Virus record (IMG/VR): IMGVR_UViG_3300042562_001768
Strand: one strand, 5' to 3'
Length of the DNA stretch: 15,563 bases
Origin: a virus
A program made the position numbers and the translations under genes. The notes under the pieces were generated by a model. It saw nothing but the letters and a program-made list of their open reading frames with translations. It was not told where the DNA came from and did not search any database. Each line of letters starts with the position of its first letter. The stretch's first letter is position 1. Of this stretch, positions 1-15,563 are shown piece after piece.

Positions 1-127
1 GGGGGGGTGGGAGGTCTTTGGGGAGGTCATGCAAGCCATCGAACGGCACGATCCGCGAGCCCAGGGAGACCTGCCCGGACAGCGCCGCGTCGTGCGTCGG
101 CGCCTGGATGAACTCGGCATCAAGGAC
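1..127. repeat. Terminal direct repeat, copy 1; exact duplicate of 15437..15563 (circular-closure overlap or terminal redundancy)
   Basis: Read directly: the first 127 nt (ggggggg tgggaggtctttggggaggtcatgcaagcc ... ctcggcatcaaggac) recur exactly as the last 127 nt of the window. Confidence 0.9.
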
Positions 128-280
128 GGCGACGCGCGCGGCGCGTGGCAGCTCTTGGTCCGCAGTTGGGCCTCGACCGGGCGGCGCCCGTACGACCGCT
201 TGGTCGACCTGACTGATCGCCTGCAAGGCGCCAGAGACCCGCGCGCGGTCATCCTTGCGCGGATCAGGGAGGTCGCATGA
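2..280 (+). CDS. C-terminal part of the junction-spanning winged-helix initiator-like gene (same gene as 15027..15563 after wrap-around); the ORF track shows it as 29..280
   Basis: Position 2 corresponds to 15438 and is in the same frame as the ORF opening at 15027. The frame stays open to TGA at 278-280. The Met at 29 is internal to this longer frame. Confidence 0.6.
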   Translation, partial: GGWEVFGEVMQAIERHDPRAQGDLPGQRRVVRRRLDELGIKDGDARGAWQLLVRSWASTGRRPYDRLVDLTDRLQGARDPRAVILARIREVA

Positions 281-687
281 TGGACGAGCAGTGCAAATCG
301 TGCCAAGATTGGCGAGACTTGTTCGTGAGATCGAATCGTGAAAATCAGGAGCTCAGGCGCCTGAACATTGCATTCAACAGACCGGAGCCATCACCAGACT
401 TGCAGCAGGAATACAGAGAAATGAAGGTGCAGAACCGAGCGATGATGGACGTTCACAACCTTCTGGTGAAGGAACATGGCGAAGCCGTTCGCCAGGTACC
501 AGCCCTCAGCGCAACGATTGCACGCCTTAAGCGCGACATTGTTCTGATCCATCAGATCTGCACGCCGCGCCAACGCTACAAACTGAGGCGCGTCTTATGG
601 CTTGACCAGCAAGAAATCGAGCATTACCGCAAGTCGCTTCACCCTGAATACATGTACGGACACGGGAAGAAGAGAAAGACAGCATGA
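277..687 (+). CDS. Hypothetical protein (136 aa), basic C-terminus
   Basis: ATG at 277 overlaps the upstream stop (ATGA). ORF-track protein MMDEQCKSCQDW...GHGKKRKTA. The region is visibly lower in G+C than the structural genes (by eye, not computed). No motif recognised. Confidence 0.5.
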   Translation: MMDEQCKSCQDWRDLFVRSNRENQELRRLNIAFNRPEPSPDLQQEYREMKVQNRAMMDVHNLLVKEHGEAVRQVPALSATIARLKRDIVLIHQICTPRQRYKLRRVLWLDQQEIEHYRKSLHPEYMYGHGKKRKTA

Positions 688-779
688 TCGGCTTCATCTT
701 CGTGTCGTTCCTGCTCCTGTTGGCGGCAGCGCCATTCATCGCCATAGCCACACTCTTACCCTGGGAATCAGATGACTAA
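684..779 (+). CDS. Small hydrophobic peptide (31 aa), putative single-pass membrane protein
   Basis: ATG at 684 overlaps the stop of the previous gene (ATGA). My translation is MIGFIFVSFLLLLAAAPFIAIATLLPWESDD, ending at TAA 777-779, and overlaps the next gene start at 772. Below the ORF-track length cutoff. Confidence 0.3.
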   Translation: MIGFIFVSFLLLLAAAPFIAIATLLPWESDD

Positions 780-1023
780 GAAAGAACTTGAGTCCATCCG
801 CCACGAGATCGCCGTCCTCAAGCGCGAGGTCGAACTCCTGCGCGACACCAACCTCGCGCGCGTGACGTACGGACGGCCCGTCATGGTCGTCCGTCGCGAC
901 AGCATGGGCGTGCACTTCGAAGACGCGCCACAACGGCGCGACACCATCGAGGATCTTGCCGCCGCGCACCGATGCGTAACCGATCGAGACATCGAGCGCG
1001 CGATGTATGCGGGGGAAGGATGA
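772..1023 (+). CDS. Hypothetical protein (83 aa)
   Basis: ORF-track frame MTKKELESIRHEIAVLKREVELLRD...; the next gene starts at 1020 overlapping its stop. No motif recognised. Confidence 0.5.
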   Translation: MTKKELESIRHEIAVLKREVELLRDTNLARVTYGRPVMVVRRDSMGVHFEDAPQRRDTIEDLAAAHRCVTDRDIERAMYAGEG

Positions 1024-1511
1024 GCCTTCCCACCAACAGCCGTATGAAGGGCAAACGGGGCGAACTGGACGCTGCCGCGCACCTCACTGAGTTGACCAGG
1101 TGGAAGTGGGAGCGCACCGCGCAACGCTGGGGCAAGGCCACGGCGGACGTTTGGTGCCCGCGCGCGCCCGCTCTGTTCCAGTTGCACGTGGAGGTGAAAC
1201 TGTACGGGCGCGGACTGGCCAAGCTTCACACCGCGGCAGCGGCGTATCCGCTGGTGGTCACGCGCGATGGCCTGCACATCTGCGAGCTCAGCCGCCTGCG
1301 CGTCCAACTGCTCAGGCTTGGCCCGCCGAACGTCACCTTGAGCGTTCACAACACGACCGCCGCCTTCATGCGCCAGGCAGTAGCCGACGCGTCAGGCGTC
1401 ACGCCGCTCGTCCTCATGCGACAGGACCGACACCCGTGGCTGGCAGTCTGGCGAAGCGAGGACGAGGACCGAGTCGCCTACCAACTCGACCAGGTGTGGA
1501 ATGAGACGTGA
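1020..1511 (+). CDS. PD-(D/E)XK-type nuclease, Holliday-junction-resolvase-like (Hjc/RecU-like pattern)
   Basis: ATG at 1020 overlaps the upstream TGA at 1021-1023 (ATGA). The N-terminal region MKGKRGELDAAAHLTE...ADVWCP...FQLHVEVK fits the G-x-x-x-E ... D ... (hydrophobic)3-E-V-K pattern of Hjc-like PD-(D/E)XK nucleases. Judged by eye only. Confidence 0.5.
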   Translation: MSLPTNSRMKGKRGELDAAAHLTELTRWKWERTAQRWGKATADVWCPRAPALFQLHVEVKLYGRGLAKLHTAAAAYPLVVTRDGLHICELSRLRVQLLRLGPPNVTLSVHNTTAAFMRQAVADASGVTPLVLMRQDRHPWLAVWRSEDEDRVAYQLDQVWNET

Positions 1512-1776
1512 GCCCCAATGCATCCACGCGCGCAAGGCGCCCGTCGTGCGGTCAGCCCACACTGGCAAGGGCAGTGGTCGACCGATGTTTCGGTTGAGTC
1601 GGACCACGCGCGCCAACCATCCGATGTGCCAGGAGAACTGCGGTCGACCATCGACCGAAGTGCATCACATCGTTCCTTGGTCCGAGTCAGTCGTGCTGCG
1701 GCTCGACCCAAATAATTTGGTCGCAGTTTGCCGTGACTGCCATGAGCGTTTGGAGGCGCTGCGGCTGACCAAGTAG
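1501..1776 (+). CDS. HNH endonuclease
   Basis: Protein contains C-x2-C ... EVHHIVP ... NNLVAVCRDCHERLE, the HNH zinc-finger and catalytic His pattern. ATG at 1501 overlaps the upstream gene by 11 nt. The true start could be a later in-frame Met (1585 or 1624). Sits immediately upstream of large terminase. Confidence 0.8.
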   Translation: MRREPQCIHARKAPVVRSAHTGKGSGRPMFRLSRTTRANHPMCQENCGRPSTEVHHIVPWSESVVLRLDPNNLVAVCRDCHERLEALRLTK

Positions 1777-1800
1777 CGATCCGTTTTTCAATTATGAGCC

Positions 1801-1822
1801 CCCCCCTATAGCCCCCCTATAG
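1801..1822. repeat. Tandem direct repeat, 2 x cccccctatag, in the HNH-terminase intergenic region
   Basis: Read directly: cccccctatag at 1801-1811 and again at 1812-1822, preceded by two more C and followed by cgagggg. Confidence 0.8.
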
Positions 1823-1868
1823 CGAGGGGTTTGAAGTACCTACGAGGTCAACCCACGGATAAACGCCG

Positions 1869-1911
1869 CCAATGCATAAGGAAAACACCCCCAATGCATA
1901 AGAAAACGCCC
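1869..1911. repeat. Tandem imperfect direct repeat (22 + 21 nt) overlapping the terminase ribosome-binding site and start codon
   Basis: ccaatgcataaggaaaacaccc (1869-1890) is followed by ccaatgcataagaaaacgccc (1891-1911). The ATG of the second copy (1894) is the terminase start; AAGGA at 1878-1882 lies 11 nt upstream. Confidence 0.7.
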
Positions 1912-3609
1912 ATCAGACGGTCACGCAAAGCGCCCGCCGGAGCGCTCCAGATTGCGGACGCCTACGCTCACGAAGCGCTGAAGGGCAAGCGCTACAACAC
2001 CCGCATCCGCGCCTTCAGTTCCCAGTGGCTGGCCGCGCGGGCGGCACCAAAGTCGGCTGGTTACGTGTGGGATGAGGAGCGCCTGACCAGCCTGGTGGAG
2101 TACGCGCGGGAGCGGTTCAAGATCACGCTCCTGCCGTGGCAGTACCTGGCCTTCGCCACGCTCGTTTCGTGGCGCGATCAGGCCGACCTTCCGGTGGTTC
2201 GGGTGTTCGCGATACAGGTCGCGCGGGGTGCGGGGAAGACGGAGATGGTGGCGATCCTGGCGTCTTGGCTGGTCGAGTGGACCGCGCGCGCGGGTCGTTC
2301 GCCGATCGAGATCGTGGTGCTCGCGACGCAGATGGAGCGCGCCAAAGACGTGTGGCTTCGGCAGAAGGTCAGCCTCGCGGACGACCCGTCCTGGCGCCTG
2401 GTCGGTGGTCTGTCGTCGCTCGTCATTGCCGCGGCCCACCACGCTGGCGGGGTGGTCAAGTGCAAGCCATCGACCCCTAAGAACGCGGACGGAATCCTGC
2501 CCACGCTCGTCGTCTTGGACGAGGCGGCGCGCATCGAAGACGAGACCTACGCGCGCGCGCTCAGTTCGATCAGCAAGGTGCCAGGCTGCCAGGCGCTGAT
2601 CGTTACGACGCCGGACAAGGATCAGCGCCGCCGCGGATACGGCACGACCATCGGACTGCTGGAGCGCGCCTACGACGAGAACACTTCGCCGCCGCCAGGG
2701 ATCGCCGGGATGATCTTCGGCATCGACACCACCGATCGACCGGACGATCCGGAGGCGTGGTACAAGGCGCACCCCAGCCTCGGCATCACGAAGCAGCTCA
2801 GCGACTACACGCTCGGCAAGGCGCTGCTCTTGGATCCCGGCGCACCGAACGATCGCGACGAGTTCTACACCCAGTTCCTCGCGACCTTCACGGATGACCT
2901 GGCCGGTGCCATGCCGCTAAGTCTGTTCGACGCGTGCGTCGAGGACTGGGATCTCTCCGACTTCCGCGGCTTCCCGGCAGTGGTCGGAGTCGACTTCAGC
3001 CAGGGCGGTTGGAGCGGTCAGCAGACGGACCTGACCTCGATCAATGTGTCGGTGTGGGACGGCGTCCGCATCCGCTCCAGGTCGTACCACTACTGGGCCG
3101 GGACCAACATCGAAGCGGACGAAGTCAAGTGCCGACAGCCGCTGCGCGAGTGGCGGGACGCGGGTCTCTTGGAGGTCTGCGGCAACACCATTGACTACTC
3201 GCTACTGGAGGCGCGGACCATCGCCATCGCGTCGATCGTTGACCTGCGGCACTGGGTCGCGGACCCAGCAGGGAAGGCGCCCGCCTGGTGCGAGGCGATG
3301 GAGAAGCGACACGGATGGCGCTGGTCGCGCGCTCCTCAGTCGCACATTTACATGGGCTCGGCGTGGGCAATTTGGAGCGACGCCGTGCGCGGTCGGCGCA
3401 TCCAGTTCGCACCCGATCCGGTGCTCCGCGCGAACCTGTCGCACACGCGCGCGGTGCCAACCGACCGAGGTCTGAGCGTGCCAAGCAAGGGGCGCAGCAC
3501 CAGCAACATCGACGCCGTCACCGCGTGCTGCATGTGCATCAAGGTGCTCAACGATCGCGAGCTCATGACCGAGAGTCTGTACGGCGACCCGGGCAAGATC
3601 TCCTTCTGA
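1894..3609 (+). CDS. terL: Terminase large subunit
   Basis: Long ORF with a P-loop-like segment VFAIQVARGAGKTEMVAILASWLV and a Walker-B-like LVVLDEAARIEDE, followed by a C-terminal nuclease-sized region. ATG at 1894 has an AAGGA Shine-Dalgarno; the ORF-track start at 1831 is a TTG extension. Followed by portal and capsid genes. Confidence 0.9.
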   Translation: MHKKTPIRRSRKAPAGALQIADAYAHEALKGKRYNTRIRAFSSQWLAARAAPKSAGYVWDEERLTSLVEYARERFKITLLPWQYLAFATLVSWRDQADLPVVRVFAIQVARGAGKTEMVAILASWLVEWTARAGRSPIEIVVLATQMERAKDVWLRQKVSLADDPSWRLVGGLSSLVIAAAHHAGGVVKCKPSTPKNADGILPTLVVLDEAARIEDETYARALSSISKVPGCQALIVTTPDKDQRRRGYGTTIGLLERAYDENTSPPPGIAGMIFGIDTTDRPDDPEAWYKAHPSLGITKQLSDYTLGKALLLDPGAPNDRDEFYTQFLATFTDDLAGAMPLSLFDACVEDWDLSDFRGFPAVVGVDFSQGGWSGQQTDLTSINVSVWDGVRIRSRSYHYWAGTNIEADEVKCRQPLREWRDAGLLEVCGNTIDYSLLEARTIAIASIVDLRHWVADPAGKAPAWCEAMEKRHGWRWSRAPQSHIYMGSAWAIWSDAVRGRRIQFAPDPVLRANLSHTRAVPTDRGLSVPSKGRSTSNIDAVTACCMCIKVLNDRELMTESLYGDPGKISF

Positions 3610-3674
3610 GAATCTCCGCCGCACTGCAACGGGAACCCATTGACATCGCTGCCGCGATTGTTGTTACTACTCGC

Positions 3675-4796
3675 ATGAACCGTCTGTTCAAGCTCTTCGG
3701 CTTCAAGTCTGCACCGATGAATATCGGTTGGGACTCTCCGTCGAACTACGTCCGAGCAGACGTCGCGGCGCTGCCGTCCGTGCAGCGATGCATGAACCTG
3801 ATCGCGAACGATGTCGCGCGCTGCCCACTGGTGGTGCGCGACGCCGAGCAGATGATGGTCGAAGACTCGACGATCACCGCGCTCTTTACGAATGCGGCGC
3901 AGGCCGAGCTAAGCGGAACAGACTTCCGCCGATGGATGGCTTCGGAAGCGCTGCTGTCTGGCAACGCCTTCGCGCAGATCGTGACCGACTCGATGGGCCA
4001 GCCCGTCGCGTTGCGTCCGCTGGCGAGCTCAGCCGTCAGCCTGAACGAAGACAGTAACGGCGTGCTGCATTGGACCTACTCCGGCACCGAGATCGACTAC
4101 GCCTCGATGCTGCACTTCAAGGGTGCGCCGAGTCCAGGGAATCCGTACTGGGGCACAAGTGTCCTGAGCGCTGCGGCGACAAGCCTCGACGCAGTCGCGC
4201 AAACCGAAGCAGCCTGGAACGCATACACCCGGAGCGGCGGATACGGCAAGCTTGTCTTCAGTCATCCCGGCGCTCTCCAGCCTGCGACCCGCGACGCCAT
4301 GCGGACCGCCTTCATGTCGGGACACATGACTGCCGCCGCAGCGGGCACACCGATCTTCGTCGGCGAAGGGATGACCGTGACCGCGCTCTCGCCGTCGTGG
4401 GGCAAGGACATGATCGAGCTCCGCGCCGCGGGCGCGCGCGTGGTCGCGAACATGTTCGGCGTACCAGCCGCGTACCTCGACATGAGCGAGGCGCGCACGC
4501 AACCAGAGATCGCACAGTCGTACGTCTCGTCGTGCTTAGAAATCTGGGCCACGACCTGGGAAGCGGAGATCAGTAACAAGCTCTTGCGACCTGGTCTTCG
4601 TGTTCGTTGGGACTGGTCGCCTGTCTTGGAAGGAGACTTCCGAACCGCTGGCAAGGCGTACGGAAAGTTCGTCGAGGTCGGCGTGCTCAGTCCGAACGAC
4701 GTCCGCGTTCGCCTTGGCTACTCGCCGCTGCCTGGTCTCTGGGATCCGAGGCCAGTGATGAGTGGCATCACCATCGAATCGGACGGTCTGCAATGA
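3675..4796 (+). CDS. Portal protein (HK97-like family)
   Basis: 373-aa ORF directly between terminase and prohead protease; MNRLFKLFGFKSAPMNIGWDSPSNYV... First in-frame ATG after the terminase stop; the ORF-track start at 3288 lies inside terminase. No clear Shine-Dalgarno, so the start is uncertain (alternative ATG at 3717). Confidence 0.8.
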   Translation: MNRLFKLFGFKSAPMNIGWDSPSNYVRADVAALPSVQRCMNLIANDVARCPLVVRDAEQMMVEDSTITALFTNAAQAELSGTDFRRWMASEALLSGNAFAQIVTDSMGQPVALRPLASSAVSLNEDSNGVLHWTYSGTEIDYASMLHFKGAPSPGNPYWGTSVLSAAATSLDAVAQTEAAWNAYTRSGGYGKLVFSHPGALQPATRDAMRTAFMSGHMTAAAAGTPIFVGEGMTVTALSPSWGKDMIELRAAGARVVANMFGVPAAYLDMSEARTQPEIAQSYVSSCLEIWATTWEAEISNKLLRPGLRVRWDWSPVLEGDFRTAGKAYGKFVEVGVLSPNDVRVRLGYSPLPGLWDPRPVMSGITIESDGLQ

Positions 4797-6403
4797 TGCG
4801 AGAACTCCGCGCACAACTGGCACCGACTACCGACGGGACGGTCCGCGGATACGCGGCGCTGTTCGACTCTTGGTCGCTGCCGATCACCGAGCGCGGACGC
4901 ACGTTCCGCGAACGCATCAAGCCGGGCGCACTACAGCCGGACGGGAACGTCTCACTGTGGTGGATGCACGACCACACCGACCCACTCGCGAACACGCGCA
5001 GCGGATCGCTCACGATTACAGAGGACGCGAAGGGGATCGCATTCGTAGCCGACTTGGGTACGAGCGCGCGCGCGGACGAGATCCGCGACCTCATTCGCCG
5101 CGGGGTGGTCGACCAGATGTCGATCGGCTTCGTCGCACTCTCAGATATCTGGGACGGCAATACGTCCCGCACGATCACTAAGGCCACGCTCCATGAGGTG
5201 AGTTTGGTCGAATCGGCTGCGTACCCCGGTACGTCAGCAACCGTCCGCAACCACCAAAGGAAACCCGCTATGTCCGTCAAAGAAGATCGTGCTCGCATCG
5301 CCGAGCTCAACGCTGAATACAACACCGCTACCGATGAGCGTCAGTTCGCCATCATGGACGAAGTCGCAGAGTGTGAGGAGCGCATCGCTGGCGCCCAGGC
5401 TGCATTCACCAACCGCGCCGCCACACCGTTGGCAGTCGCACCGTCGGCACCGCTTGCCGTCGTTCGTCGCATCACGCCTCCAGTCCGTGACGAGCAGCGC
5501 GAGTGGTTCCGCACTGGCTTCAAGCAGAACCGATCCATCGGTCTGAGCGTGACGGGTGGCAACGCTACCGCCGGGCAAACTTTGCCGACCCTGAGCGGTG
5601 AGTTCATCAAGGCGCTCGACCAAGAGTCCGTGATGCGTAGCCTCGCAACCGTCGAGACCCGTGGACTCGATACCGATATCCAAGTGATCGGCACGCGCCA
5701 GACCGCTGTTCTGCTGGCAGAAAAGGCGGCGTACACATCGACCGACTTCACCGCGACCAAGCTCTCTTTCAAGAGCTACAAGTCCGGCGCGCTGACCGAC
5801 GTCACGGAAGAGGCCTTGCAGGACACCGTGTGGGATGTTGCGAGTCAGGTAGTCAGTGAACACGGTCGCGCTCACTCGCGACTCTGGGAGAACTACTACG
5901 TAAACGGTACCGGCACTTCCCAGCCGCAAGGCGCGTTTGCTGCGACCTGGACAACGACGTACACCACGGCGGCTGTTGGCTTGCCAACGGTGGCGGACTT
6001 GGTCACGGCTGCGTACAAGTTGCCAACCCCGTACCAGGCGAACGCGTCCTGGCTCATGCACTCAACTGTTTGGGCTGCGGTCGTCGGCAGTGCGGCCAGC
6101 GGCAAGTACCTCCTGAACGGTGAGAACGGGAACATCCTCAAGGACGGGGCCGTCGCTCTGTTCCTCGGCAAGCCTGTCTACCTCAGCGAGTGGGCACCAT
6201 CGGCAGCAACCGCTGCTACGGTGTCGTGCCTGTACGGTGACTTCAAGGCGGGCTACCGAATCATCGACCGCTCGATGCTGAGCTTCACCGTTGATGATGT
6301 GTCCCAGATGTCTAACGGACTCATCCGCTACACCAGTCGTATGCGCTCCGACGCCAAGGCCGTCGACGCGACCGCGATTGTCCCGGTCGTCATCAAGACC
6401 TGA
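4793..6403 (+). CDS. Prohead (capsid maturation) protease fused in frame to HK97-type major capsid protein; internal ribosome-binding site and ATG at 5270 may also give stand-alone capsid protein
   Basis: ATG at 4793 overlaps the portal stop (ATGA). The N-terminal ~159 aa (VRGYAALFDS...WWMHDHTD...VDQMSIGFVALSD...LHEVSLVESAAYPGT) match the HK97 prohead protease pattern. From MSVKEDRARIAELNAEY onward it is a coiled-coil delta region followed by a capsid-protein-like body ending ...DATAIVPVVIKT. No stop codon separates the two parts. AAGGA at 5257-5261 precedes the in-frame ATG at 5270. Confidence 0.85.
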   Translation: MMRELRAQLAPTTDGTVRGYAALFDSWSLPITERGRTFRERIKPGALQPDGNVSLWWMHDHTDPLANTRSGSLTITEDAKGIAFVADLGTSARADEIRDLIRRGVVDQMSIGFVALSDIWDGNTSRTITKATLHEVSLVESAAYPGTSATVRNHQRKPAMSVKEDRARIAELNAEYNTATDERQFAIMDEVAECEERIAGAQAAFTNRAATPLAVAPSAPLAVVRRITPPVRDEQREWFRTGFKQNRSIGLSVTGGNATAGQTLPTLSGEFIKALDQESVMRSLATVETRGLDTDIQVIGTRQTAVLLAEKAAYTSTDFTATKLSFKSYKSGALTDVTEEALQDTVWDVASQVVSEHGRAHSRLWENYYVNGTGTSQPQGAFAATWTTTYTTAAVGLPTVADLVTAAYKLPTPYQANASWLMHSTVWAAVVGSAASGKYLLNGENGNILKDGAVALFLGKPVYLSEWAPSAATAATVSCLYGDFKAGYRIIDRSMLSFTVDDVSQMSNGLIRYTSRMRSDAKAVDATAIVPVVIKT

Positions 6404-6740: not shown

Positions 6741-7070
6741 ATGGCTGGCGCTGGATACCGACGCGAACGCATGATCTACCAGACGCCGAGCCGCAGCACT
6801 GATGTCGCAGGCCAGCAGACGGTAACGTGGTCGGACGTTGTCACTCTGGCTTGCGCCATCACACCGACACAGCGCGAGGTCCTCGACGATCTTGGTGTGT
6901 CCGTGCGGACGGACATCTCGGTCGAGTCTTCGTACCACGCGAGCGTCGTGGCGAAGGGTCGGCTGAAGCACACGGTCAGCCTGTCGATCTACAACATCAT
7001 GAGCGTGACCGATCCGGACGCGGGGCGCAAGCGGCGCCTCCGGATCCTTGCTGCGGAGATCGTCCCATGA
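6741..7070 (+). CDS. Head closure / head-tail joining protein
   Basis: 109 aa, size and position typical of head-tail joining proteins (MAGAGYRRERMIYQTPSRS...RLRILAAEIVP). Call is mainly by synteny. Confidence 0.5.
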   Translation: MAGAGYRRERMIYQTPSRSTDVAGQQTVTWSDVVTLACAITPTQREVLDDLGVSVRTDISVESSYHASVVAKGRLKHTVSLSIYNIMSVTDPDAGRKRRLRILAAEIVP

Positions 7071-7846
7071 TCGCAGCCAAGGTCGACCTGAAGGTGATCA
7101 ACGGATACATCGAACGGCTCACCCTCGCGGGTCGCGCCAAGGTCTACGCACAGGCCGCGCGCGATGCAGCGAACCCAGTACGAAACGAACTGCGCCGCGC
7201 CTGGCGCAAGGCCAAGCGCCGCCGTGGCAAGATCACCAGGAAGATCGCGGCAGCCCAAGAGGTGCGCGTCTTCGTCGGTCAGCGCGGCGGGCGCAAGGGC
7301 GTGGCCACCGTGATGGTGGGAACGAACTACAAGCGCGGCGGCTCGGTCAAGTTGTGGCATCTGCTTGAGCGCGGATATCAGCACTACGGCGGGGGATCGA
7401 ACTCGGTCTACACCCCACGCGACGCGCGCGCGCGCGACACGGAGAAGCGCGAGGACGAGGTAGCCCGCGTGACTGGGGAAGAACAAATCGCGCACGAGGT
7501 GCGGATGGGAACCGATGGAACCAAGTACTCCCGGCAGCGCGTGGCACAGGTGCGCCATCAAGCGCGCGTGTGGTTCCGACAGAACAACCCAGCCGACACG
7601 GCGCACCGCCGCGCAGCCTGGGCAAGCAAGCAGTCAGCGATGAAGTCCGCGCGCGGCGGGGTCATCGCAAACCGGAAGCGCATCCTCGGTCGGCACATCT
7701 CTGAGCCCATCGCGCGGCTCGCGAAGGAACGCCTGCCAGCCATCGCAGCGCAACACGCGCAGCGCCTCGCGTGGTATCAGATCGACGGACGCAAGGCCGG
7801 GGCGGCGAAGCCGAAGTTCTCGAACGCCGACTGGTGGCAGCAATGA
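7067..7846 (+). CDS. Basic structural protein, possible neck / tail-completion protein
   Basis: ATG at 7067 overlaps the upstream stop (ATGA). 259 aa, very Arg/Lys-rich. Function inferred from position only. Confidence 0.4.
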   Translation: MIAAKVDLKVINGYIERLTLAGRAKVYAQAARDAANPVRNELRRAWRKAKRRRGKITRKIAAAQEVRVFVGQRGGRKGVATVMVGTNYKRGGSVKLWHLLERGYQHYGGGSNSVYTPRDARARDTEKREDEVARVTGEEQIAHEVRMGTDGTKYSRQRVAQVRHQARVWFRQNNPADTAHRRAAWASKQSAMKSARGGVIANRKRILGRHISEPIARLAKERLPAIAAQHAQRLAWYQIDGRKAGAAKPKFSNADWWQQ

Positions 7847-8247
7847 GCGTGGCAGGAGCAGAGTTCTATCAAGCGCTCTACACCCGCGCGACCACCGTGG
7901 CGGGTCTCGTCCTGAGTCCCGACCTGCGGCGCGAGGGTGACCCCACGCCAGCGATGTCGTACGAAATCACCAGCGCTTCTTTCAGCGTCGAGACCGACGG
8001 CAGAATCAACGAGGTCACCGCGATCGAGGTCCGCTGGGAAGCGGTCGCCGATTCACTCATCACCGCGTGGGATCTCGCGTGGAGTGTGCGCGGCGCGATC
8101 GACGGCAAGTGGGGGGTCGGCAGTCTCGACTTCGTCCTGACGTCGGCATCGATGTCCTCCGGTATGGCAACGCCCGACGACGGGCAAGGGGACGCCGAGC
8201 GCGTCGTAACTCTCACTACATCTTTCCTCGTCATGGAGACAACCTGA
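7843..8247 (+). CDS. Tail terminator-like protein
   Basis: ATG at 7843 overlaps the upstream stop (ATGA). 134 aa, located directly upstream of the major tail protein candidate. Synteny-based. Confidence 0.4.
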   Translation: MSVAGAEFYQALYTRATTVAGLVLSPDLRREGDPTPAMSYEITSASFSVETDGRINEVTAIEVRWEAVADSLITAWDLAWSVRGAIDGKWGVGSLDFVLTSASMSSGMATPDDGQGDAERVVTLTTSFLVMETT

Positions 8248-8642
8248 TGGCAACTCGCGCAATGGCTGGCTACGGCGGCACACTCACCTTTAAGATCGGG
8301 GCCGGGACCGCCAACGGTATCCCAGTCCGGAACATCACCATGTCGCGCCAGGCGGCAGAGTTCGATATGACGTCGATCTCGGATACCAAGATCTACAGCG
8401 GTCCCGGTCGCGTGAAGCGGAGCGGCTCCTGTGATGCGTACTTCGGAACGCTGTCGGCAAACTTCACGACCTCGATCGAAGCCATCGACCTAGCAGCGCC
8501 AGCCGAACTCGTCATCACGGACGCGGCTGGCGGGTCCACGACCATGAAGGTCATCATCACCGCCGCGGACTTGAAGTACGACGGCAGCGATGCGGTCATC
8601 TACTCCATCAGCTTTTCCGAAACGATCAGCATCACCGTATGA
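8247..8642 (+). CDS. Major tail (tube) protein candidate
   Basis: 131 aa, Gly/Thr/Ser-rich and beta-like: MATRAMAGYGGTLTFKIGAGTANGIPVRNITMSRQAAEFDMTSISDTKIYSGPGRVK... Pattern and position are typical of small siphovirus tail tube proteins. TGATG overlap with the upstream gene. Confidence 0.55.
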   Translation: MATRAMAGYGGTLTFKIGAGTANGIPVRNITMSRQAAEFDMTSISDTKIYSGPGRVKRSGSCDAYFGTLSANFTTSIEAIDLAAPAELVITDAAGGSTTMKVIITAADLKYDGSDAVIYSISFSETISITV

Positions 8643-8890
8643 CCTACCGACCAGTCATCCTCGAATACTCGTCGCTCACCCTTGAGGTCCGGAGACCAAC
8701 CCTCCGCGACACCGTGGAGGCAGACACATCGGACAAGCTTTGGTGGGTTCGCTGCGTGCGCCATGTCGGCGGCGCAGACCTCACCAGGGACGAGGCGCTC
8801 GACCTCGATGCCGCGGACGGTAACACGCTCGCGCAGGAGGTGCTTCGCCCACACCCTACACCGCCGCTGAGAAGCGGCTCTGGAGACTGA
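8639..8890 (+). CDS. Tail assembly chaperone candidate
   Basis: 83-aa ORF between the major tail and tape-measure candidates. ATG overlaps the upstream stop (ATGA). Call by synteny. Confidence 0.4.
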   Translation: MTYRPVILEYSSLTLEVRRPTLRDTVEADTSDKLWWVRCVRHVGGADLTRDEALDLDAADGNTLAQEVLRPHPTPPLRSGSGD

Positions 8891-9063
8891 TGCCACACCT
8901 AGACGCCGACGCCGCACTCGCAAGCGAGCACACCACGCTGGAGCGGATCGAGTACCTACTCGCCACGCTTGCCTGCGCGATGACTGGCCAGGCGCCACAG
9001 CAGTTGCTGCCGTGGCGTCGGCGTGGCATCGAGGACTTCATGGGGCGCATCAATGGCCAATGA
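8890..9063 (+). CDS. Small ORF (57 aa) in the -1 frame relative to the upstream chaperone candidate; possible second chaperone ORF
   Basis: My translation is MPHLDADAALASEHTTLERIEYLLATLACAMTGQAPQQLLPWRRRGIEDFMGRINGQ, with ATG at 8890 (TGATG overlap) and stop TGA at 9061-9063. Not in the ORF track (below length cutoff). No canonical slippery heptamer seen upstream. Confidence 0.3.
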   Translation: MPHLDADAALASEHTTLERIEYLLATLACAMTGQAPQQLLPWRRRGIEDFMGRINGQ

Positions 9064-9661
9064 GTTCAAGTCAGTCCTCACCCTGACCGCGGACAGTTCC
9101 GGCGTCACCGCCGGAGTTAACCAGGCGATGCAGTCCCTCAACAAGTTGCAAGGCGGGATGTCCGCGCTGACATCGCTCGCGGGCGTCGGCTTTGCCATCG
9201 GCATTGGCAAGCAACTCTTCGGCGCAGCCACCGACGAGATGGCACGGATCAAAGACCTCGCGCACTCCTTCAGTCCGGAAGGGATGCGCGGCGCCAACGC
9301 CATGAACATGGCGACCCAGCAGGCGGACATGGCTATCGGCAAGGCGTTCGGTCCGATCGTGGAAGCGATCGACCAGGCATCCGTCGCAGCGATCAAGGAA
9401 CTGACCACGTTCATCATCGAGCACAAGGACGAGATCGGGATGGCGATGATCTATCTGACCGAGGTCACGCACGTGGCAGCAATGGCTATGGCAGAGTTCC
9501 TCGTCGGTCTGGGCAAGACCGTCGAGTGGCTGCATAACTTCATGGACAATCCACTACAGGCGACCGCCCAACTCGCTGGCGATGTTGCGATGCAGGCCAG
9601 TGGCGCCAACCTCGTCATCGGTATCTATGACCTCCTCAAACAGAAATTGGGTGGCACATGA
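9053..9661 (+). CDS. Tape measure protein candidate, unusually short (~202 aa)
   Basis: Ala/Gly/Met-rich, apparently helical protein with a hydrophobic segment ALTSLAGVGFAIGIGKQLFGAA, at the tape-measure position after the chaperone-like ORFs. ATG at 9053; an alternative GTG lies at 9023. Confidence 0.45.
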   Translation: MANEFKSVLTLTADSSGVTAGVNQAMQSLNKLQGGMSALTSLAGVGFAIGIGKQLFGAATDEMARIKDLAHSFSPEGMRGANAMNMATQQADMAIGKAFGPIVEAIDQASVAAIKELTTFIIEHKDEIGMAMIYLTEVTHVAAMAMAEFLVGLGKTVEWLHNFMDNPLQATAQLAGDVAMQASGANLVIGIYDLLKQKLGGT

Positions 9662-10611
9662 CCGCGAAGCTCATCGAGATCCCATCAAGCGATACCGTCG
9701 AGATGGCGATGCCTGGCGAGGAGATGAGTTGGACGCAGCACTTCCGCTACGTCTCAAACGCCGCCAAGCTCACCGCGTGGGATGTGCTCGGCGACACCGC
9801 CACTGGCGTACCGCAGCAGGGTTCAAGATACCCAGCCACGCCGTCGACCAACTGGAAGTGCAACTTCGTCGCGCGCAGTGTGACAGCGACACCCGTACCA
9901 CAAGCGGCTGCGGGGTGCGCCTTCGACGTCCGAGTGAAGTGGACCGGGCGCGCGGCGCAGGATCCGACGCGTCCGTACTTCAAGATCACGCGCTCGACCT
10001 CGACGCGCAGTCATGGCTTCTACCGCACAGGCGACATGTTCACGATCACGCAGGCAAACGGCAGCGAGCCCTTCCCGCCAGTCCAGGACATGGGCGGGGT
10101 AAAGAGTGACACCAACGGTCAGCCGATTGTGATGCCGATCTACCAGCAGCAGATCCAGGTCGACATGCTCTGGGACCGAAGCCGGGACAACGCCAGCTCG
10201 CTTGGCTTTACGGCATCGCCTGACCCGCCGATGAACTGGTACGACAACTACTGCCTCACACGGAACTCCGTGCCGTTCCTCGGTTGGCCGATCGGATACG
10301 TCACCTACCTCGGATGGAGTCTGAACCCGTCACCGGACGAGGTGTGCGTTTTATCGCATCGCTTCCTGGCGGACGATTTCCAGTTCTGTGAGCAGCGCCC
10401 GCTACCGAATCAAAGCGGCAAACCGTTCTTAGCGGCGGGTCTGACCTGGGGCGGAACGGCTAGCACACCAGCCGTAACCGTGCAATCCCAGGCGTACGTC
10501 TTCTGGTACCAACCGTTCCAGACTCTTGTCGACTACTCCACGCTCTTCACCATCCGTCCGAATCTGTGGACGGCGATCAACACTCCGAAGCCAGCGTGGC
10601 CGTCGCCATGA
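9658..10611 (+). CDS. Minor tail protein (distal tail / baseplate candidate)
   Basis: 317-aa ORF, ATG overlapping the upstream stop (ATGA). Trp/Tyr/Pro-rich. Position after the tape-measure candidate. No specific motif recognised. Confidence 0.5.
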   Translation: MTAKLIEIPSSDTVEMAMPGEEMSWTQHFRYVSNAAKLTAWDVLGDTATGVPQQGSRYPATPSTNWKCNFVARSVTATPVPQAAAGCAFDVRVKWTGRAAQDPTRPYFKITRSTSTRSHGFYRTGDMFTITQANGSEPFPPVQDMGGVKSDTNGQPIVMPIYQQQIQVDMLWDRSRDNASSLGFTASPDPPMNWYDNYCLTRNSVPFLGWPIGYVTYLGWSLNPSPDEVCVLSHRFLADDFQFCEQRPLPNQSGKPFLAAGLTWGGTASTPAVTVQSQAYVFWYQPFQTLVDYSTLFTIRPNLWTAINTPKPAWPSP

Positions 10612-11111
10612 CGTACGAATGGCCGATCTTTACCGAAGGGCTTTACGGCAAGGCGAACGCCTCGGTGTGCAACGCCTGGACGCAATCGGCGCGCATCGTG
10701 CTATCAAGCGCGGAGGCGCTCGACTGGGCGAACCGAACGAAAGACGGTATGGACCAGCCCGATCGGTGGCTTGCGAAGGTCACGGGCGCAGCAGTCATCA
10801 GCAGTAATCGCTGGTCGTACACCTTTGTGCCTGTCATTATCTCCGGCACGACTACCGCGAACCTATCCGGCACTGGCCAGGCTGGCTCCGGCGCCTTGAA
10901 CTTGCGCGAGATGAACAACACCACAATCCTCGCGGATGGTTCGCCGCTCGCGAGTGGCGTGACCATCGGTCCCGTCGGCTCCACCTGGGGCGGATCGAGT
11001 TGGTCTACGAGTTCGCTGACTGGAATCGTCGAGATGAACGTCGAACATAAAGCCGACGGCAGCGTCGCGTATTGGTTTTCCTCACCGAACCCTGGGAGAT
11101 GTGCAACATGA
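10608..11111 (+). CDS. Minor tail protein, Gly/Ser/Thr-rich
   Basis: 167 aa from ATG 10608 (ATGA overlap); the ORF-track start at 10566 lies inside the previous gene. Low-complexity GTTTANLSGTGQAGSG and SSWSTSS segments are typical of fibre-like proteins. Confidence 0.5.
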   Translation: MTYEWPIFTEGLYGKANASVCNAWTQSARIVLSSAEALDWANRTKDGMDQPDRWLAKVTGAAVISSNRWSYTFVPVIISGTTTANLSGTGQAGSGALNLREMNNTTILADGSPLASGVTIGPVGSTWGGSSWSTSSLTGIVEMNVEHKADGSVAYWFSSPNPGRCAT

Positions 11112-12415
11112 AATACGACGTAATCCGGTCATACTGGCCAGCTCCGATCTACGACACGCCTCTTCCTGCTGGCGTTTATGGCAGTATGCGGGCGTTCAAC
11201 TTCATACGGGAAACCACTACCAAAGGGCTAGACGTAGCAATCGTTGGAGACAGCAACACGGGCTACAACGCTCCGAACGATGGCGGTTACGTTCAAGGCA
11301 TTTCCTATGGTTTGGATGTTGCGTTCCCTTCAAATGCTTACGCCACCGCTACGTTTACGCTGATGAACGAAGGGAACTCTGCTGGCTACAAGTGCTCAAT
11401 GCAAGGCGCATCACTGGCCAGCGCACCGGGTGGCTACGTTTCGGGAAAAGCGAGCGGCGACGCGGGTATTAAAACTTTCTTTGACCGTGGTAGTGGAAGT
11501 TGGAGTGATGCGGGCGGCGCGAACGCAGGGACGTACACGGATTTCCCATGGCTTGAATCGGGAAATCAAACCGAGAACATTAACCGTGGTATGACAATCG
11601 ACTCAGATCACCCCATCGGCGTAAACAACGCGCTCCGATATAGAGTCCTGCGGAGTCAGACCACAACGGGCGGCAGTTTCTATATGCGCGTTCGTCTGAA
11701 TGGTGGCTCATATGCACCGATTGCCACATCGGCTTCGATCCCTTGCAGTGGCGCAACTAATCTAGTTGCATCAGAACTACCGATCACTGTTGGCACTCGC
11801 AATCTGTCCTTGGCTTCATTCTGGAGCATCCAAAACGCAGTTGGTCTTTACACGGTCGGCCCGTGGGGCGGTTTGTTGCAATCGATGTACCGCCCAACAG
11901 TTGGTTGGGCAGTGGATGCGATGTATTTCATGGGTGGTGCAACCATCACCGCCATCGATACAGACTTCGCCGCAGCAAACACCGCTGGGTATCTCACCGC
12001 CACCATGCTTGCCGAGTATTACAACCGACAACTAGCGGCGGGTGGGGATGGTCGCATCGTTGTTTGGATTCAAGGCGGAGCCAACCAAAGCGACTGGACA
12101 TCGAGTCCAAGCACATGGCCAGCAAAGTGGGAATCCATTATGAATTACGTCCGCACAGCAGCCACATACGCCGCCATACCTTCGGAGAAGTTGGCATTCG
12201 TTGCGATGTGTACGCATGACATCACGGGTTATGACTTTGCTTCTAGGCGAGCCGCGCTCATCGCATTGACTACTGCAAACCCTGATCTAACGGTAGTCAA
12301 CATTCCGGAGATTATTCCGTTTGCTTCTTACTCTGCCTATGCAAGCGGAGCGCACTTGTCTAAGACCGGATACCAAACGATTGGCAATGCCATTATTCAA
12401 CGGATGCTTTCTTGA
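11108..12415 (+). CDS. SGNH/GDSL-like hydrolase (esterase/deacetylase-like) protein, tail-associated or lysis enzyme
   Basis: 435 aa from ATG 11108 (ATGA overlap). Block-I-like VAIVGDSNTGYNA near the N-terminus and a block-V-like ASGAHLSKTGYQTIGNAI near the C-terminus, with a long Gly/Ser/Thr-rich insert between. The Asp three residues before the His is not conserved (SGAH), so catalytic integrity is uncertain. G+C visibly lower than the head genes. Confidence 0.45.
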   Translation: MKYDVIRSYWPAPIYDTPLPAGVYGSMRAFNFIRETTTKGLDVAIVGDSNTGYNAPNDGGYVQGISYGLDVAFPSNAYATATFTLMNEGNSAGYKCSMQGASLASAPGGYVSGKASGDAGIKTFFDRGSGSWSDAGGANAGTYTDFPWLESGNQTENINRGMTIDSDHPIGVNNALRYRVLRSQTTTGGSFYMRVRLNGGSYAPIATSASIPCSGATNLVASELPITVGTRNLSLASFWSIQNAVGLYTVGPWGGLLQSMYRPTVGWAVDAMYFMGGATITAIDTDFAAANTAGYLTATMLAEYYNRQLAAGGDGRIVVWIQGGANQSDWTSSPSTWPAKWESIMNYVRTAATYAAIPSEKLAFVAMCTHDITGYDFASRRAALIALTTANPDLTVVNIPEIIPFASYSAYASGAHLSKTGYQTIGNAIIQRMLS

Positions 12416-12714
12416 TCCACCTAGCGGTCGTCATCCTCACGTTCCTCCTGTCAGCCTGTGCATCGAGCACGGCGCAGATCGCGCACGCAGCCAACGCGTC
12501 CCGCGTCTCGGTCGGCGCCGCGCGCGGACACCTGGTCGCCGCCAGCGCGGAGCTCGACCAGATAGAGGCTCAATGCCAGGTGGTGAGCGAGCAGATCCCG
12601 TACGTCTCTGATGATGTGCCGAGCTACATGTCGGTTCTTCAGTACGCCAGTGTTGCCGTCGTCGTCTTCGTCGTTGGCAGTCTCATCTACACCTACATAC
12701 CGCGGAAGAAATGA
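12412..12714 (+). CDS. Membrane protein with N-terminal lipoprotein-type signal (lipobox LSAC) and C-terminal transmembrane helix; lysis-associated candidate
   Basis: TTG start overlapping the upstream stop (TTGA). MIHLAVVILTFLLSAC ASST... has a hydrophobic h-region followed by L-S-A-C. The C-terminus ASVAVVVFVVGSLIYTYI PRKK is a hydrophobic helix with a basic tail. No in-frame ATG near the N-terminus, so the start is uncertain. Confidence 0.4.
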   Translation: MIHLAVVILTFLLSACASSTAQIAHAANASRVSVGAARGHLVAASAELDQIEAQCQVVSEQIPYVSDDVPSYMSVLQYASVAVVVFVVGSLIYTYIPRKK

Positions 12715-12839
12715 TGCTGACCCAAACTCAATATCTGATATGGCTCGTTGCGATTCTCGTCACGACAGCGGCTGCGGGGTGCCGAGTTGGCGCCACTTGG
12801 TCGACCTTCAAACATCAAACAAAAAAGGCTCGCAAATGA
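12711..12839 (+). CDS. Small single-pass membrane protein (42 aa), holin-like candidate
   Basis: My translation is MMLTQTQYLIWLVAILVTTAAAGCRVGATWSTFKHQTKKARK: one hydrophobic helix and a basic C-terminus. ATG overlaps the upstream stop and the next start overlaps its stop. Below the ORF-track length cutoff. Confidence 0.3.
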   Translation: MMLTQTQYLIWLVAILVTTAAAGCRVGATWSTFKHQTKKARK

Positions 12840-12949
12840 TTACGCAAGCAGACCTCTCCAGTACCCTCGGCTCAATTTTCTTCGCGACCAGTCTCGGATT
12901 CGTGGGCTTGATACTTGGTTACATCCTGTGCCGCCGGGCAAGCAAATGA
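12836..12949 (+). CDS. Small single-pass membrane protein (37 aa), holin-like candidate
   Basis: MITQADLSSTLGSIFFATSLGFVGLILGYILCRRASK, the C-terminal part of ORF-track ORF 12611..12949, whose N-terminus overlaps the previous genes. ATGA overlaps at both ends. Confidence 0.3.
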   Translation: MITQADLSSTLGSIFFATSLGFVGLILGYILCRRASK

Positions 12950-13707
12950 GTCTGCTTCGGTGTTGCTGCGGTAGCGCAACCTGTGCATCCTGTCCATCGT
13001 TACCAGGCGACTGGTCGACGCGGGACTATCGTTTGTTCATACCAGCAGTCAAGCCTGTTGGATATGGTCGCGCGAGTTCAGTGCCGAGCGGTCTATACAC
13101 CGGGCCCTGCACGCCAGCGGATCCGTACTGGAACTTGGCAGAGTGTGCATTCGACTTTACCACTGGCTCGCTGTACTACGTCTATTCTCGACTCGCAAAC
13201 TGCGAGCCCTTTCCAGAAGCTTGCGGCGAAGTCTTAAAGTTCCCGCGGGAGATCGGTGGCTTCTATACGGACAACCTTGTCCCGTCGATTACGTTCTCTA
13301 CGCAGATTGCCACGCGCACATACAACCAAACAGGCGACGTTTCATATTTCATCCAGGCGGACGTATCGCGATGCTGGGGCGGATGGGCTGGGTGTGAGAG
13401 TTGCACCAACCGAACCAAGGTCAGCCTCTACTACTTTTTTGGCAACAACTTCACATACAACGACAACTGCACAAACCATCCTGCTGGTGTTACAAAGACT
13501 GTGGAGCTGGAGTATCTCTCGAATCCTTACGCCGCAAGTGAAGGCATCGGAAAAACTTGCTACCTCAGAACCTGGAAAGTGAGCCCTGGGCCGACAGCCT
13601 TCTGCTACCCGGAAACAGGTCAATATGGCTGCGCTGATCCTTGCGTCCTTGGATCGTGTTCGTTCTTTGGATCAAGCAACTTTCCCTCAACGGTAACAAT
13701 CGTATGA
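12946..13707 (+). CDS. Cysteine-rich protein (18 Cys in 253 aa), unknown function
   Basis: ATG at 12946 overlaps the upstream stop (ATGA); the ORF-track start at 12748 is an upstream extension. N-terminal MSLLRCCCGSATCASC cluster and Cys spread through an aromatic/Asn/Thr-rich body. G+C at third codon positions visibly lower than the head genes. Confidence 0.6.
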   Translation: MSLLRCCCGSATCASCPSLPGDWSTRDYRLFIPAVKPVGYGRASSVPSGLYTGPCTPADPYWNLAECAFDFTTGSLYYVYSRLANCEPFPEACGEVLKFPREIGGFYTDNLVPSITFSTQIATRTYNQTGDVSYFIQADVSRCWGGWAGCESCTNRTKVSLYYFFGNNFTYNDNCTNHPAGVTKTVELEYLSNPYAASEGIGKTCYLRTWKVSPGPTAFCYPETGQYGCADPCVLGSCSFFGSSNFPSTVTIV

Positions 13708-14274: not shown

Positions 14275-15027
14275 ATGGATGGCATCACGAAGCTTGCTGC
14301 GGCACTGGTCGCAGCCCAGAAGGATCTGACAAACCCCAAGTTTGATAAGCAGAATCCGCACTATCACAGTAAGTACGCATCACTGGCAGGCATTATCGAC
14401 ACGGTCCGCCCGGCGCTCTTAAAGCACGGACTGGCGGTGGTGCAACCGATCGAAACGGGGACCACATCCGGGACGATTCAGGTCCACACGATCCTGATCC
14501 ACACCTCCGGCGAGTCGATCAAGTCGACCCAGTCGGCACCGGCCCCAGGCGACCCGCAAAAGTTGGGCAGCCTGGTCACGTACTTGCGCCGCTATGGACT
14601 GTCTGCGCTGCTCATGCTGGCAGGGGACGACGACGACGATGCGAACGCCGCCGCGGCACCAACGCAGAAGACCCAGCAAACGCTTGAGCGCCACGTAGAG
14701 GCGTCCGCAGCGCTCTCCGGTGTCGAGAGAGCCATCGCAACCGCAGCCGCTCCTAGGGCATCCAAGGCGCCCGCGCGCGCTGCCGCCGCGAAGGGCATCC
14801 GAGTCGACGCAACGGTGAGCAAGATCGAGGAGCGCACCTCGGCGGCTGGCAAGGAGTACGCATGGATCCACACCGAGGACGCGGGGCGCCTCACATCGTT
14901 TGACAACATCGACGGGATGTCGGTCGGCGCGCGGTACACGTTCCTCCTCCGGAACGACCGCGACGGCAACCCGACGATCGTGGACGACTTCAGCGCTTGC
15001 GTCTCCGACGAGGAGATCCCATTCTGA
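14275..15027 (+). CDS. erf: ERF-family single-strand annealing protein (recombinase)
   Basis: N-terminal NPKFDKQNPHYHSKYASLAGIIDTVRPALLKHGLAVVQ, then DPQKLGSLVTYLRRYGLSALLMLAGDDDDD, which resembles the conserved core of ERF proteins. GGGAG Shine-Dalgarno 8 nt upstream of the ATG. Confidence 0.75.
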   Translation: MDGITKLAAALVAAQKDLTNPKFDKQNPHYHSKYASLAGIIDTVRPALLKHGLAVVQPIETGTTSGTIQVHTILIHTSGESIKSTQSAPAPGDPQKLGSLVTYLRRYGLSALLMLAGDDDDDANAAAAPTQKTQQTLERHVEASAALSGVERAIATAAAPRASKAPARAAAAKGIRVDATVSKIEERTSAAGKEYAWIHTEDAGRLTSFDNIDGMSVGARYTFLLRNDRDGNPTIVDDFSACVSDEEIPF

Positions 15028-15563
15028 TGCGCGTCGCCAAGCAACACATCCACATGGGAGAGATCTTCCGCTGCTCCGGACTTGCTCCGATGCAGCGTTA
15101 CCTACTCATGGCAATAGCCGATTACGGGCTCCCCGCCTGGCCGTCCCAGGCGCGCCTCGCAAACAAAACTGGACTCTCGCGATCCAGCATCAACACGATG
15201 GTGTCAGAGTTACGTCGCCTCGGCGTCCTTACGACGGAAGGTCGGGGCAAGTCTTTGACCTATCGAATTGACCTGTCTGGGAAGGGTGAGGTGTCGTCCG
15301 CAGCGACACCTCACCTGTCGTCCACAGCGACACCACCTGTCGTCCACAGCGACAGCAGGTGTCGCCCACAGCGACAGGGATCAGAACTCTCCAAGGAACT
15401 CTCCAATGAACCCTCCCAGTCCGCGGTGGAAACCGCGGGGGGGTGGGAGGTCTTTGGGGAGGTCATGCAAGCCATCGAACGGCACGATCCGCGAGCCCAG
15501 GGAGACCTGCCCGGACAGCGCCGCGTCGTGCGTCGGCGCCTGGATGAACTCGGCATCAAGGAC
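15027..15563 (+). CDS. Winged-helix DNA-binding protein, putative replication initiator with embedded iterons; truncated by the window edge and completed by 2..280 (229 aa in total)
   Basis: ATG at 15027 (TGATG overlap with erf stop). N-terminus MQRYLLMAIADYGLPAWPSQARLANKTGLSRSSINTMVSELRRLGVLTTEG is HTH-like. The frame is open to the window end and continues through the duplicated 127 nt. The Ser/Thr/Pro-rich linker is encoded by the iteron array. Confidence 0.65.
   Translation, partial: MRVAKQHIHMGEIFRCSGLAPMQRYLLMAIADYGLPAWPSQARLANKTGLSRSSINTMVSELRRLGVLTTEGRGKSLTYRIDLSGKGEVSSAATPHLSSTATPPVVHSDSRCRPQRQGSELSKELSNEPSQSAVETAGGWEVFGEVMQAIERHDPRAQGDLPGQRRVVRRRLDELGIKD
15285..15376. promoter_or_regulatory. 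Array of four 17-bp palindromic iteron-like repeats (tgtcgYccRcagcgaca), candidate origin of replication or operator
   Basis: Units at 15292-15308, 15316-15332, 15338-15354 and 15360-15376, spaced 24/22/22 bp. Each is an inverted repeat tgtcg-N7-cgaca. The first is extended to 12-bp arms (ggtgaggtgtcg / cgacacctcacc, 15285-15315). Followed by an AT-richer 11-bp direct repeat gaactctccaa x2 at 15384-15406. Confidence 0.55.

Follow-up and report, generated by a model that had tools for sequence, protein, structure and literature searches.

What are the three small open reading frames (ORFs) that separate the replication initiator gene from a PDDEXK nuclease gene in the phage recorded as IMGVR_UViG_3300042562_001768, and do they form one functional block? 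The stretch of DNA analyzed here (the window, 15,563 nt) carries them within 277-1023 as ORFs of 136, 31 and 83 amino acids (aa), referred to below as A136, B31 and C83, and as A, B and C where the corresponding genes of related contigs (L numbers) are meant. A first-pass annotation had listed ORFs of these same lengths, which we recovered on the + strand (Table 1), and had grouped them as a single AT-richer block in which host-takeover or anti-defense genes might be expected. Our analysis suggests, with a probability of about 0.55, that the locus consists of two parts, accessory cassettes carrying A136 and B31 and a core gene, C83, and that there is no single AT-rich island.

Variation of the locus among related phages

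Between the stop codon of the initiator gene and the start codon of the PDDEXK gene, at least eight architectures occur in close relatives. The order A136-B31-C83 is shared by this genome and L001-L006, and an A allele of 103 aa stands in the same place in L026-L029 (A103-B31-C83). A is missing from L023 and also from L030, which comes from an uncultivated virus genome (UViG) of 15,406 nt; both contigs retain the other two genes (B32-C83). B is absent from L007-L021, which read A136/140-C81 (L011-L015), A103-C82 (L010), an alternative A103 allele followed by C81 (L019-L021) or A103-C90-HTH_17 (L007-L009 and L016-L018, as does L031), and L025 reads A103-B31-C92-HTH_17. The flanks are 90-97% identical across these architectures, and the segments 281-566 and 688-801 are without a counterpart in some of them. 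The alternative A103 allele shares 43% amino acid identity overall with A136, the DNA flanking the dissimilar segment being 93% identical upstream and 74-81% identical downstream. Three copies of a short junction repeat were located, at the initiator/A border, inside A and at the A/B border (Table 1), the last of which reads ATGATGGAC in L025. In the variants without A the sequence reads ...GCATGATGGAC joined directly to TTCATC... (also given as ...GGTCGCATGATGGAC joined to TTCATC...), which is the product expected of recombination between the first and third repeat copies and thus fits a deletion of A. A and B are gained, lost, cut short or exchanged for other alleles through recombination between short repeats that lie around the ATGA borders. 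The aligned loci show that A136 and B31 are lineage-specific accessory cassettes, dispensable and recombinationally mobile.

C83, in contrast, is present in every closely related locus (15 clusters at ≥73% identity). More sensitive pattern scans detected distant C homologs in a wider family of contigs, 13-16 kb in size. Over the C-terminal half the homologs are approximately 40-55% identical, and the TerL, portal and initiator of these contigs are ~29%, ~36% and ~39% identical, respectively, to those of the window. The members of this family (L046-L052, L039 and L041) are uncultured, have a G+C content (GC) of 54-59%, and follow the order initiator-C-PDDEXK-(HNH)-TerL-portal-protease/capsid. 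In L046-L052 the C gene begins at the initiator stop and PDDEXK comes directly after it, which leaves no room for A or B; the two were thus inserted later, in a single sub-lineage of high GC. L039 has a primase zinc-finger protein and a primase/helicase in place of the O-like initiator, and a C-like gene still lies directly upstream of PDDEXK and HNH, while in L041 a C-like gene follows the initiator and is itself followed by a 62-aa coiled-coil gene and then the contig end. This deep conservation, together with the retention beside PDDEXK and HNH in L039, shows that C83 belongs to the core genes of a much broader family of 13-16-kb phages and travels with the nuclease/HNH block. In that family the gene is invariably the first one after the replication gene, and PDDEXK comes next to it wherever the contig extends that far and no small gene has been inserted. 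C83 would accordingly be expected to work with the DNA-processing/maturation block (PDDEXK-HNH-terminase) rather than as a host-takeover gene. The sole distant PDDEXK match in viral contigs, L037, belonged to an unrelated low-GC phage and was set aside.

Several relatives carry an extra 62-aa gene of the HTH_17 type (helix-turn-helix, HTH; MerR/excisionase-like) between C and PDDEXK (L007, at 3142-3330; L008; L009; L016-L018; L025; L031), which matches the PADLOC model 'mad1' at 3e-10. Since small genes have been inserted on either side of C, both C-flanking junctions are insertion hot spots.

Base composition

The GC of each segment was ranked as a percentile among all windows of the same length in the genome. 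A136 (52.3%) and B31 (53.1%) are low, and jointly (277-779) reach 52.7%, the 1.5th percentile, whereas C83 is normal both in GC (63.1%, 59th percentile) and in GC at the third codon position (GC3, 0.76). The whole interval 277-1023 has a GC of 56.5%, which is only the 14th percentile. The description of the locus as AT-richer is therefore borne out for A136 and B31 and fails for C83, and the low-GC part of the block coincides with the part that is recombinationally variable. The drop in GC3 of A136 is real and moderate (0.64 compared to ~0.78 in core genes; ~4 binomial standard deviations, 137 codons). Its largest deficit is at the second codon position (GC2, 0.34 compared to ~0.50), because of a coiled-coil amino acid composition rich in K, E, Q, N and R, so that the low GC of A136 is largely an effect of amino acid composition and not a clear sign of foreign origin.

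The A-B block is also not the main compositional anomaly of the genome, as a stronger one lies at 11108-12415 and 12711-13707 (GC 51-54%, GC3 0.53-0.59). The low-GC block 11108-13707 encodes proteins of 435 and 253 aa and a transmembrane peptide of 42 aa, and BLAST identity to close relatives breaks down at about 10687-12413, suggesting that the block holds exchangeable host-recognition or lysis genes.

Operon and genome setting

The ends of the window (1-127 and 15437-15563) are an exact 127-nt overlap, which makes the window the complete, circular assembly of a phage genome of 15,436 bp with a GC of 61.5% and every gene on the + strand. Exact-protein look-ups returned many metagenomic contigs of 14-16 kb that share this genome type in circularly permuted form. 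Adjacent genes overlap at ATGA at the initiator/A, A/B and C/PDDEXK junctions and at ATGACTAA at the B/C junction, and a scan of positions 1-2000 on the + strand, by consensus only, found no promoter-like or terminator-like sites. The overlapping borders and the lack of such sites make the A-B-C block part of one translationally coupled operon, of which it forms the distal part: an early replication/recombination operon of ERF, initiator, A, B, C, PDDEXK and HNH.

Table 1. Features of the locus and its surroundings in the window (coordinates in nt).
Feature	Position	Strand	Remark
A136	277-687	+	ORF, 136 aa
B31	684-779	+	ORF, 31 aa
C83	772-1023	+	ORF, 83 aa
Junction repeat GCATGATGGAC	275-285	+	initiator/A border
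Junction repeat copy GCGATGATGGAC	439-450	+	inside A
Junction repeat copy GCATGATCGGC	682-692	+	A/B border
A136 segment, ~residues 10-46	300-410	+	deleted in 103-aa alleles of relatives
Replaced patch, 22 nt	~311-333	+	within the 300-410 segment
A136 part without nucleotide similarity in the alternative 103-aa allele (L019-L021)	281-566	+	alignment
B cassette indel unit	688-801	+	~20 nt instead in relatives without B
PDDEXK_15 nuclease, RusA-like annotation	1020-1511	+	start overlaps C83 stop (ATGA)
HNH endonuclease	1501-1776	+	directly upstream of TerL
TerL	1894-3609	+	after 118-nt gap 3' of HNH
ERF annealase	14275-15027	+	
O-like replication initiator, 229 aa	15027-15563 and 128-280	+	wraps circular assembly; 3' part read in the window as 29-280; PHROG matches
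Four 22-nt iterons (direct repeats)	15288-15377	+	inside initiator gene
Three 12-nt tandem repeats	15384-15419	+	inside initiator gene

The gene directly upstream of A136 had been taken for an initiator, and this holds: the 229-aa protein matches phrog_270 (6.9e-13) and several O-like families (~1e-8) in PHROGs, has a winged-helix N-terminal domain matching initiator families and carries iterons inside its own gene. The iterons and the 12-nt repeats within the initiator gene are arranged much as in the lambda ori. In near-identical contigs (L001, L004, L005, L026) the initiator is split by some gene callers, leaving an 83-aa fragment; a G7 run at the window start was considered as the cause and discarded, as it is identical in all relatives. 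An Rfam scan of the window returned no match.

Elsewhere in the genome, TerL is followed by portal, a protease-capsid fusion, connectors and unannotatable tail genes. The genome is very small for an HK97-type tailed phage. A single ORF of 536 aa (4793-6403) joins its Peptidase_S78 head maturation protease to an HK97-type major capsid protein, and TerL shares only ~22% identity with that of any GenBank phage. The tail-region proteins (7067-12714) have no PHROG match. The C-terminus of the ERF annealase (...SDEEIPF), like those of relatives (GEEIPF in L039, EEEVPF in L041), resembles the acidic C-terminal tail of bacterial SSB, which suggests that it may recruit host SSB-interacting proteins. 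A search of 185,579 representative bacterial genomes found no relative of C83 or TerL, and hence no prophage or host assignment follows. A 100-aa protein at 12412-12714 combines a lipobox (LSAC) signal with a C-terminal transmembrane segment, a layout like that of a unimolecular spanin, and is 51-57% identical in distant relatives; a lipoprotein of this kind suggests a putative Gram-negative host. The adjoining 42-aa transmembrane ORF (12711-12839) is a possible holin. Published descriptions of this phage group were looked for in the literature, and nothing directly relevant came up.

The A136, B31 and C83 products

Scans of A, B and C and their divergent homologs against Pfam, PHROGs, NCBIfam and PADLOC yielded only sub-threshold coiled-coil and transmembrane noise, in keeping with the earlier statement that the three ORFs lack recognizable motifs. 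Positions 1-4000 had no nucleotide match among GenBank phages, tblastn of A136 and C83 against the same phages gave no match at E≤1, and word-indexed homology searches returned only lineage-restricted close relatives. Profile searches of the PDB with A and C gave nothing meaningful, and neither homology nor structure comparisons gave a match of known function. No similarity to characterized inhibitors was found in Pfam and PHROGs (E≤1), the PDB (profile and fold) or BFVD, none of which is a dedicated anti-defense library. A profile search with the A family through 1.84 billion cluster representatives recovered its own two clusters and two long coiled-coil proteins, the latter with marginal E-values.

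Both A136 and C83 are real genes under purifying selection, as their ratios of nonsynonymous to synonymous substitution rates (dN/dS) against relatives lie well below 1 (0.15-0.31 and 0.18-0.38, respectively; dS 0.37-1.9), and the GC-by-codon-position pattern of each fits the + frame. A136 is basic (isoelectric point, pI, 9.7) and is preceded by a Shine-Dalgarno (SD)-like GGGAGG. Its last ~45 residues (T-x-RQRYKL...DQ-EI...PEY-GHGKKRKTA; net charge +7) are nearly invariant, even in the 43%-identical allele, and the N-terminal part is swappable. The AlphaFold2 (AF2) model of A136 (predicted local distance difference test, pLDDT, 71.6; predicted template modeling score, pTM, 0.34) is all-helical, with helices at residues 2-32 and 40-94 and three short ones, and its GHGKKRKTA tail is disordered. 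The model has no fold match in the PDB, and Foldseek matches of the C-terminus to homeodomains were non-significant (E ~6); weak structural resemblance of the C-terminus to homeodomains and TrpR is a lead only. A conserved zinc site (CxxC, residues 6-9) was considered and dropped, as the cysteines are missing in several alleles, and the name 'translation elongation factor EF-Ts', given by one source to a 103-aa A allele (P0004), is unsupported by sequence or family scans and looks spurious. A136 most likely forms a coiled-coil dimer or oligomer, with the invariant, strongly basic C-terminus (~45 residues) as the putative binding site for nucleic acid or for a conserved acidic partner and the exchangeable N-terminal coiled coil as the putative determinant of specificity. 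It would most likely modulate DNA transactions or a host factor without being essential, as a gene for host interaction or fitness that stands outside the replication machinery.

B31 (MIGFIFVSFLLLLAAAPFIAIATLLPWESDD) is an optional single-pass hydrophobic peptide, and its earlier description as a membrane peptide agrees with a mean Kyte-Doolittle value of 2.57 over residues 2-25. It has a 24-residue hydrophobic stretch, no basic residue and an acidic C-terminus. Compared to L030 there are two synonymous and eight nonsynonymous codon differences, mostly of one hydrophobic residue for another, and across five B haplotypes the frame is kept through an in-frame codon insertion, as are the hydrophobic core and the terminal PWES(D/N)D, whereas each of the other two + frames is interrupted by stops. 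B31 is thus placed as a probable peptide gene. Its cassette (688-801) carries an alternative 5' end of C83 (MTKKELES.. vs MSQFEEL..). Set against the features of holins and single-gene-lysis peptides, B31 has one hydrophobic segment, a C-terminus that is acidic and not basic, no PHROG match and an optional occurrence among relatives, and it lies apart from the candidate lysis genes (12412-12839). We propose that B31 would span the inner membrane once and be selected mainly for its hydrophobicity. It is probably a small accessory factor that acts at the membrane, for example in exclusion or in modulation of a host membrane protein.

C83 (pI 6.3) begins with an amphipathic helix resembling a leucine zipper, and its C-terminal part bears the conserved motif ED-P-RRDTI...CVTDRDIERA. 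Its AF2 model (pLDDT 59.8) is confident only for the helix at residues 3-25, and its quality was too poor for a fold search.

Weighing the alternatives

Because A136 and B31 are orphan, compositionally deviant and variable, they behave as accessory genes of the host-interaction type usually do, and by analogy an anti-defense or host-takeover function is plausible for A and B and unlikely for C. That all three ORFs form one horizontally acquired AT-rich island of early host-takeover or anti-defense genes (e.g., inhibitors of restriction, RecBCD or abortive infection) we consider unlikely. A and B are orphans of lower GC and GC3 that adjoin recombination and replication genes, and their presence or absence and the hypervariable N-terminal part of A among near-identical genomes are the usual population signature of counter-defense; C83, however, does not deviate in GC and belongs to the core of a wide family, no known protein, fold or defense-related model was matched, much of the low GC of A comes from GC2, and the genes are translationally coupled into an operon with no promoter or terminator of their own. 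It is likewise doubtful that, jointly, A136 is a new counter-defense or host-takeover protein, B31 an independent membrane-acting exclusion peptide and C83 an unusually small packaging/maturation factor replacing the small terminase in the 13-16-kb family; in that case the basic C-terminal domain of A136 would dock on a conserved nucleic acid or host target and its N-terminal coiled coil would be diversifying in an arms race, as seen in its three alleles, its deletion form and its loss. A136 occupies the position of lambda P, directly downstream of the O-like initiator and translationally coupled to it, and is basic and predicted to oligomerize, as an adaptor or loader linking the initiator to the host helicase might be. 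Yet A is absent from L023, L030 and all the distant relatives L046-L052 that retain the initiator, its allele type does not co-vary with initiator sequence, and no match to the P, DnaC/DnaI or DnaD families was found, so that a loader role is highly improbable.

No small terminase is recognizable anywhere in the genome, where HNH is followed by a lower-GC gap (1777-1893) that is a possible cos region, and then TerL. This opens the question of whether C83 could fill the place of the small terminase subunit, or could confer packaging specificity or regulate late genes by acting on HNH-TerL, with A136 as a less likely candidate. C83 is small and universally conserved, has an N-terminal helix of the oligomerization type and remains beside PDDEXK-HNH even where another replication module has been taken up. 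It lies upstream of PDDEXK-(HNH)-TerL in all relatives with contigs reaching that far, which is necessary for a small terminase but not sufficient. Against it, comparison with Pfam and PHROGs (E≤1) placed neither C83 nor A136 in a small-terminase family, C83 has no evident HTH or basic DNA-binding segment, two genes separate it from TerL, and at 77-83 aa it is shorter, to our knowledge, than the characterized small terminases. We regard this role of C83 as rather improbable, and A136 was rejected for it, as contigs without A exist, one of them from a 15.4-kb UViG. Lastly, at least one of the ORFs might not be a gene, above all B31, which with 31 codons, a weak SD, near-neutral substitution and absence from most relatives could be a chance hydrophobic spacer ORF that preserves coupling. 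This is highly improbable in view of the dN/dS and codon-position GC of A and C, the upkeep of the B frame and hydrophobicity through an in-frame indel with stops in the other + frames, and the persistence of the B cassette when A is deleted.

Several points weigh against the division into accessory cassettes and a core gene that we prefer. The AF2 models come from shallow alignments (pTM of 0.34 for A, pLDDT of 59.8 for C), and the mechanistic proposals for A, B and C draw only on composition, predicted helices and synteny. The 'early' timing of the operon is deduced from gene content. The 8:2 ratio of nonsynonymous to synonymous differences in B is approximately neutral, and B might be a spacer ORF that is tolerated and does no more than maintain translational coupling. 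The adjacency of C and PDDEXK is also not absolute, as another small gene lies 3' of C in L007-type genomes and in L041. The first-pass reading of the locus is partly supported, as to its position and the accessory-type behavior of A136 and B31, and does not extend to the core gene C83.

Relation to known systems and implications

The locus is most like the mosaic accessory ('moron' or nin-like) slots of lambdoid and HK97-like phages, which also hold small orphan genes between replication genes and Holliday-junction-nuclease or packaging genes and share with it presence or absence among close relatives, exchange at short conserved junctions and deviant composition. Presence/absence or allele swap was seen for A136 and B31 and not for C83, which is always present, and the deviant composition applies to 277-779. 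No autonomous transcription unit was found: classical morons have their own promoter and terminator, whereas here there are ATGA-coupled cassettes without such signals, and the A, B and C products resemble no nin, ren or moron family. A136 recalls the lambda O-P pair in directly following an O-like initiator with iterons inside its own gene, but differs from P in being dispensable, restricted to one sub-lineage and without similarity to P or other loaders. The membrane-anchored replication organizer p16.7 of phi29 consists of a transmembrane segment, a coiled coil and a small helical DNA-binding domain. In general layout, A136 (coiled coil and basic helical C-terminus) and B31 (transmembrane) jointly have these three elements within a replication operon; unlike in p16.7, the elements lie on two polypeptides, in another order, and occur independently in relatives. 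The small helical anti-RecBCD proteins lambda Gam and P22 Abc1/Abc2, encoded beside recombinases, are similar to A136 in size, helical content and location beside an ERF-type annealase, but A136 has no Pfam or PHROG match at E≤1 and no PDB fold match.

The locus is thus of an ordinary kind, a mosaic slot in which accessory orphan genes adjoin the replication genes of a phage, now resolved to accessory and core parts, and it gave no evidence of a new mechanism. The value of this result is modest: what had been flagged as an 'AT-rich unknown block' is two things, an accessory cassette pair and a core gene, and precise recombination boundaries can be given for it. The wider context may matter more, namely uncultured 13-16-kb HK97-type phages with no recognizable small terminase and with tail genes that are largely unannotatable. 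A136 and B31 are candidates for host-interaction and defense screens, and C83, which is among the best-conserved proteins of the 13-16-kb phage family, is a candidate for an essential replication or packaging role.

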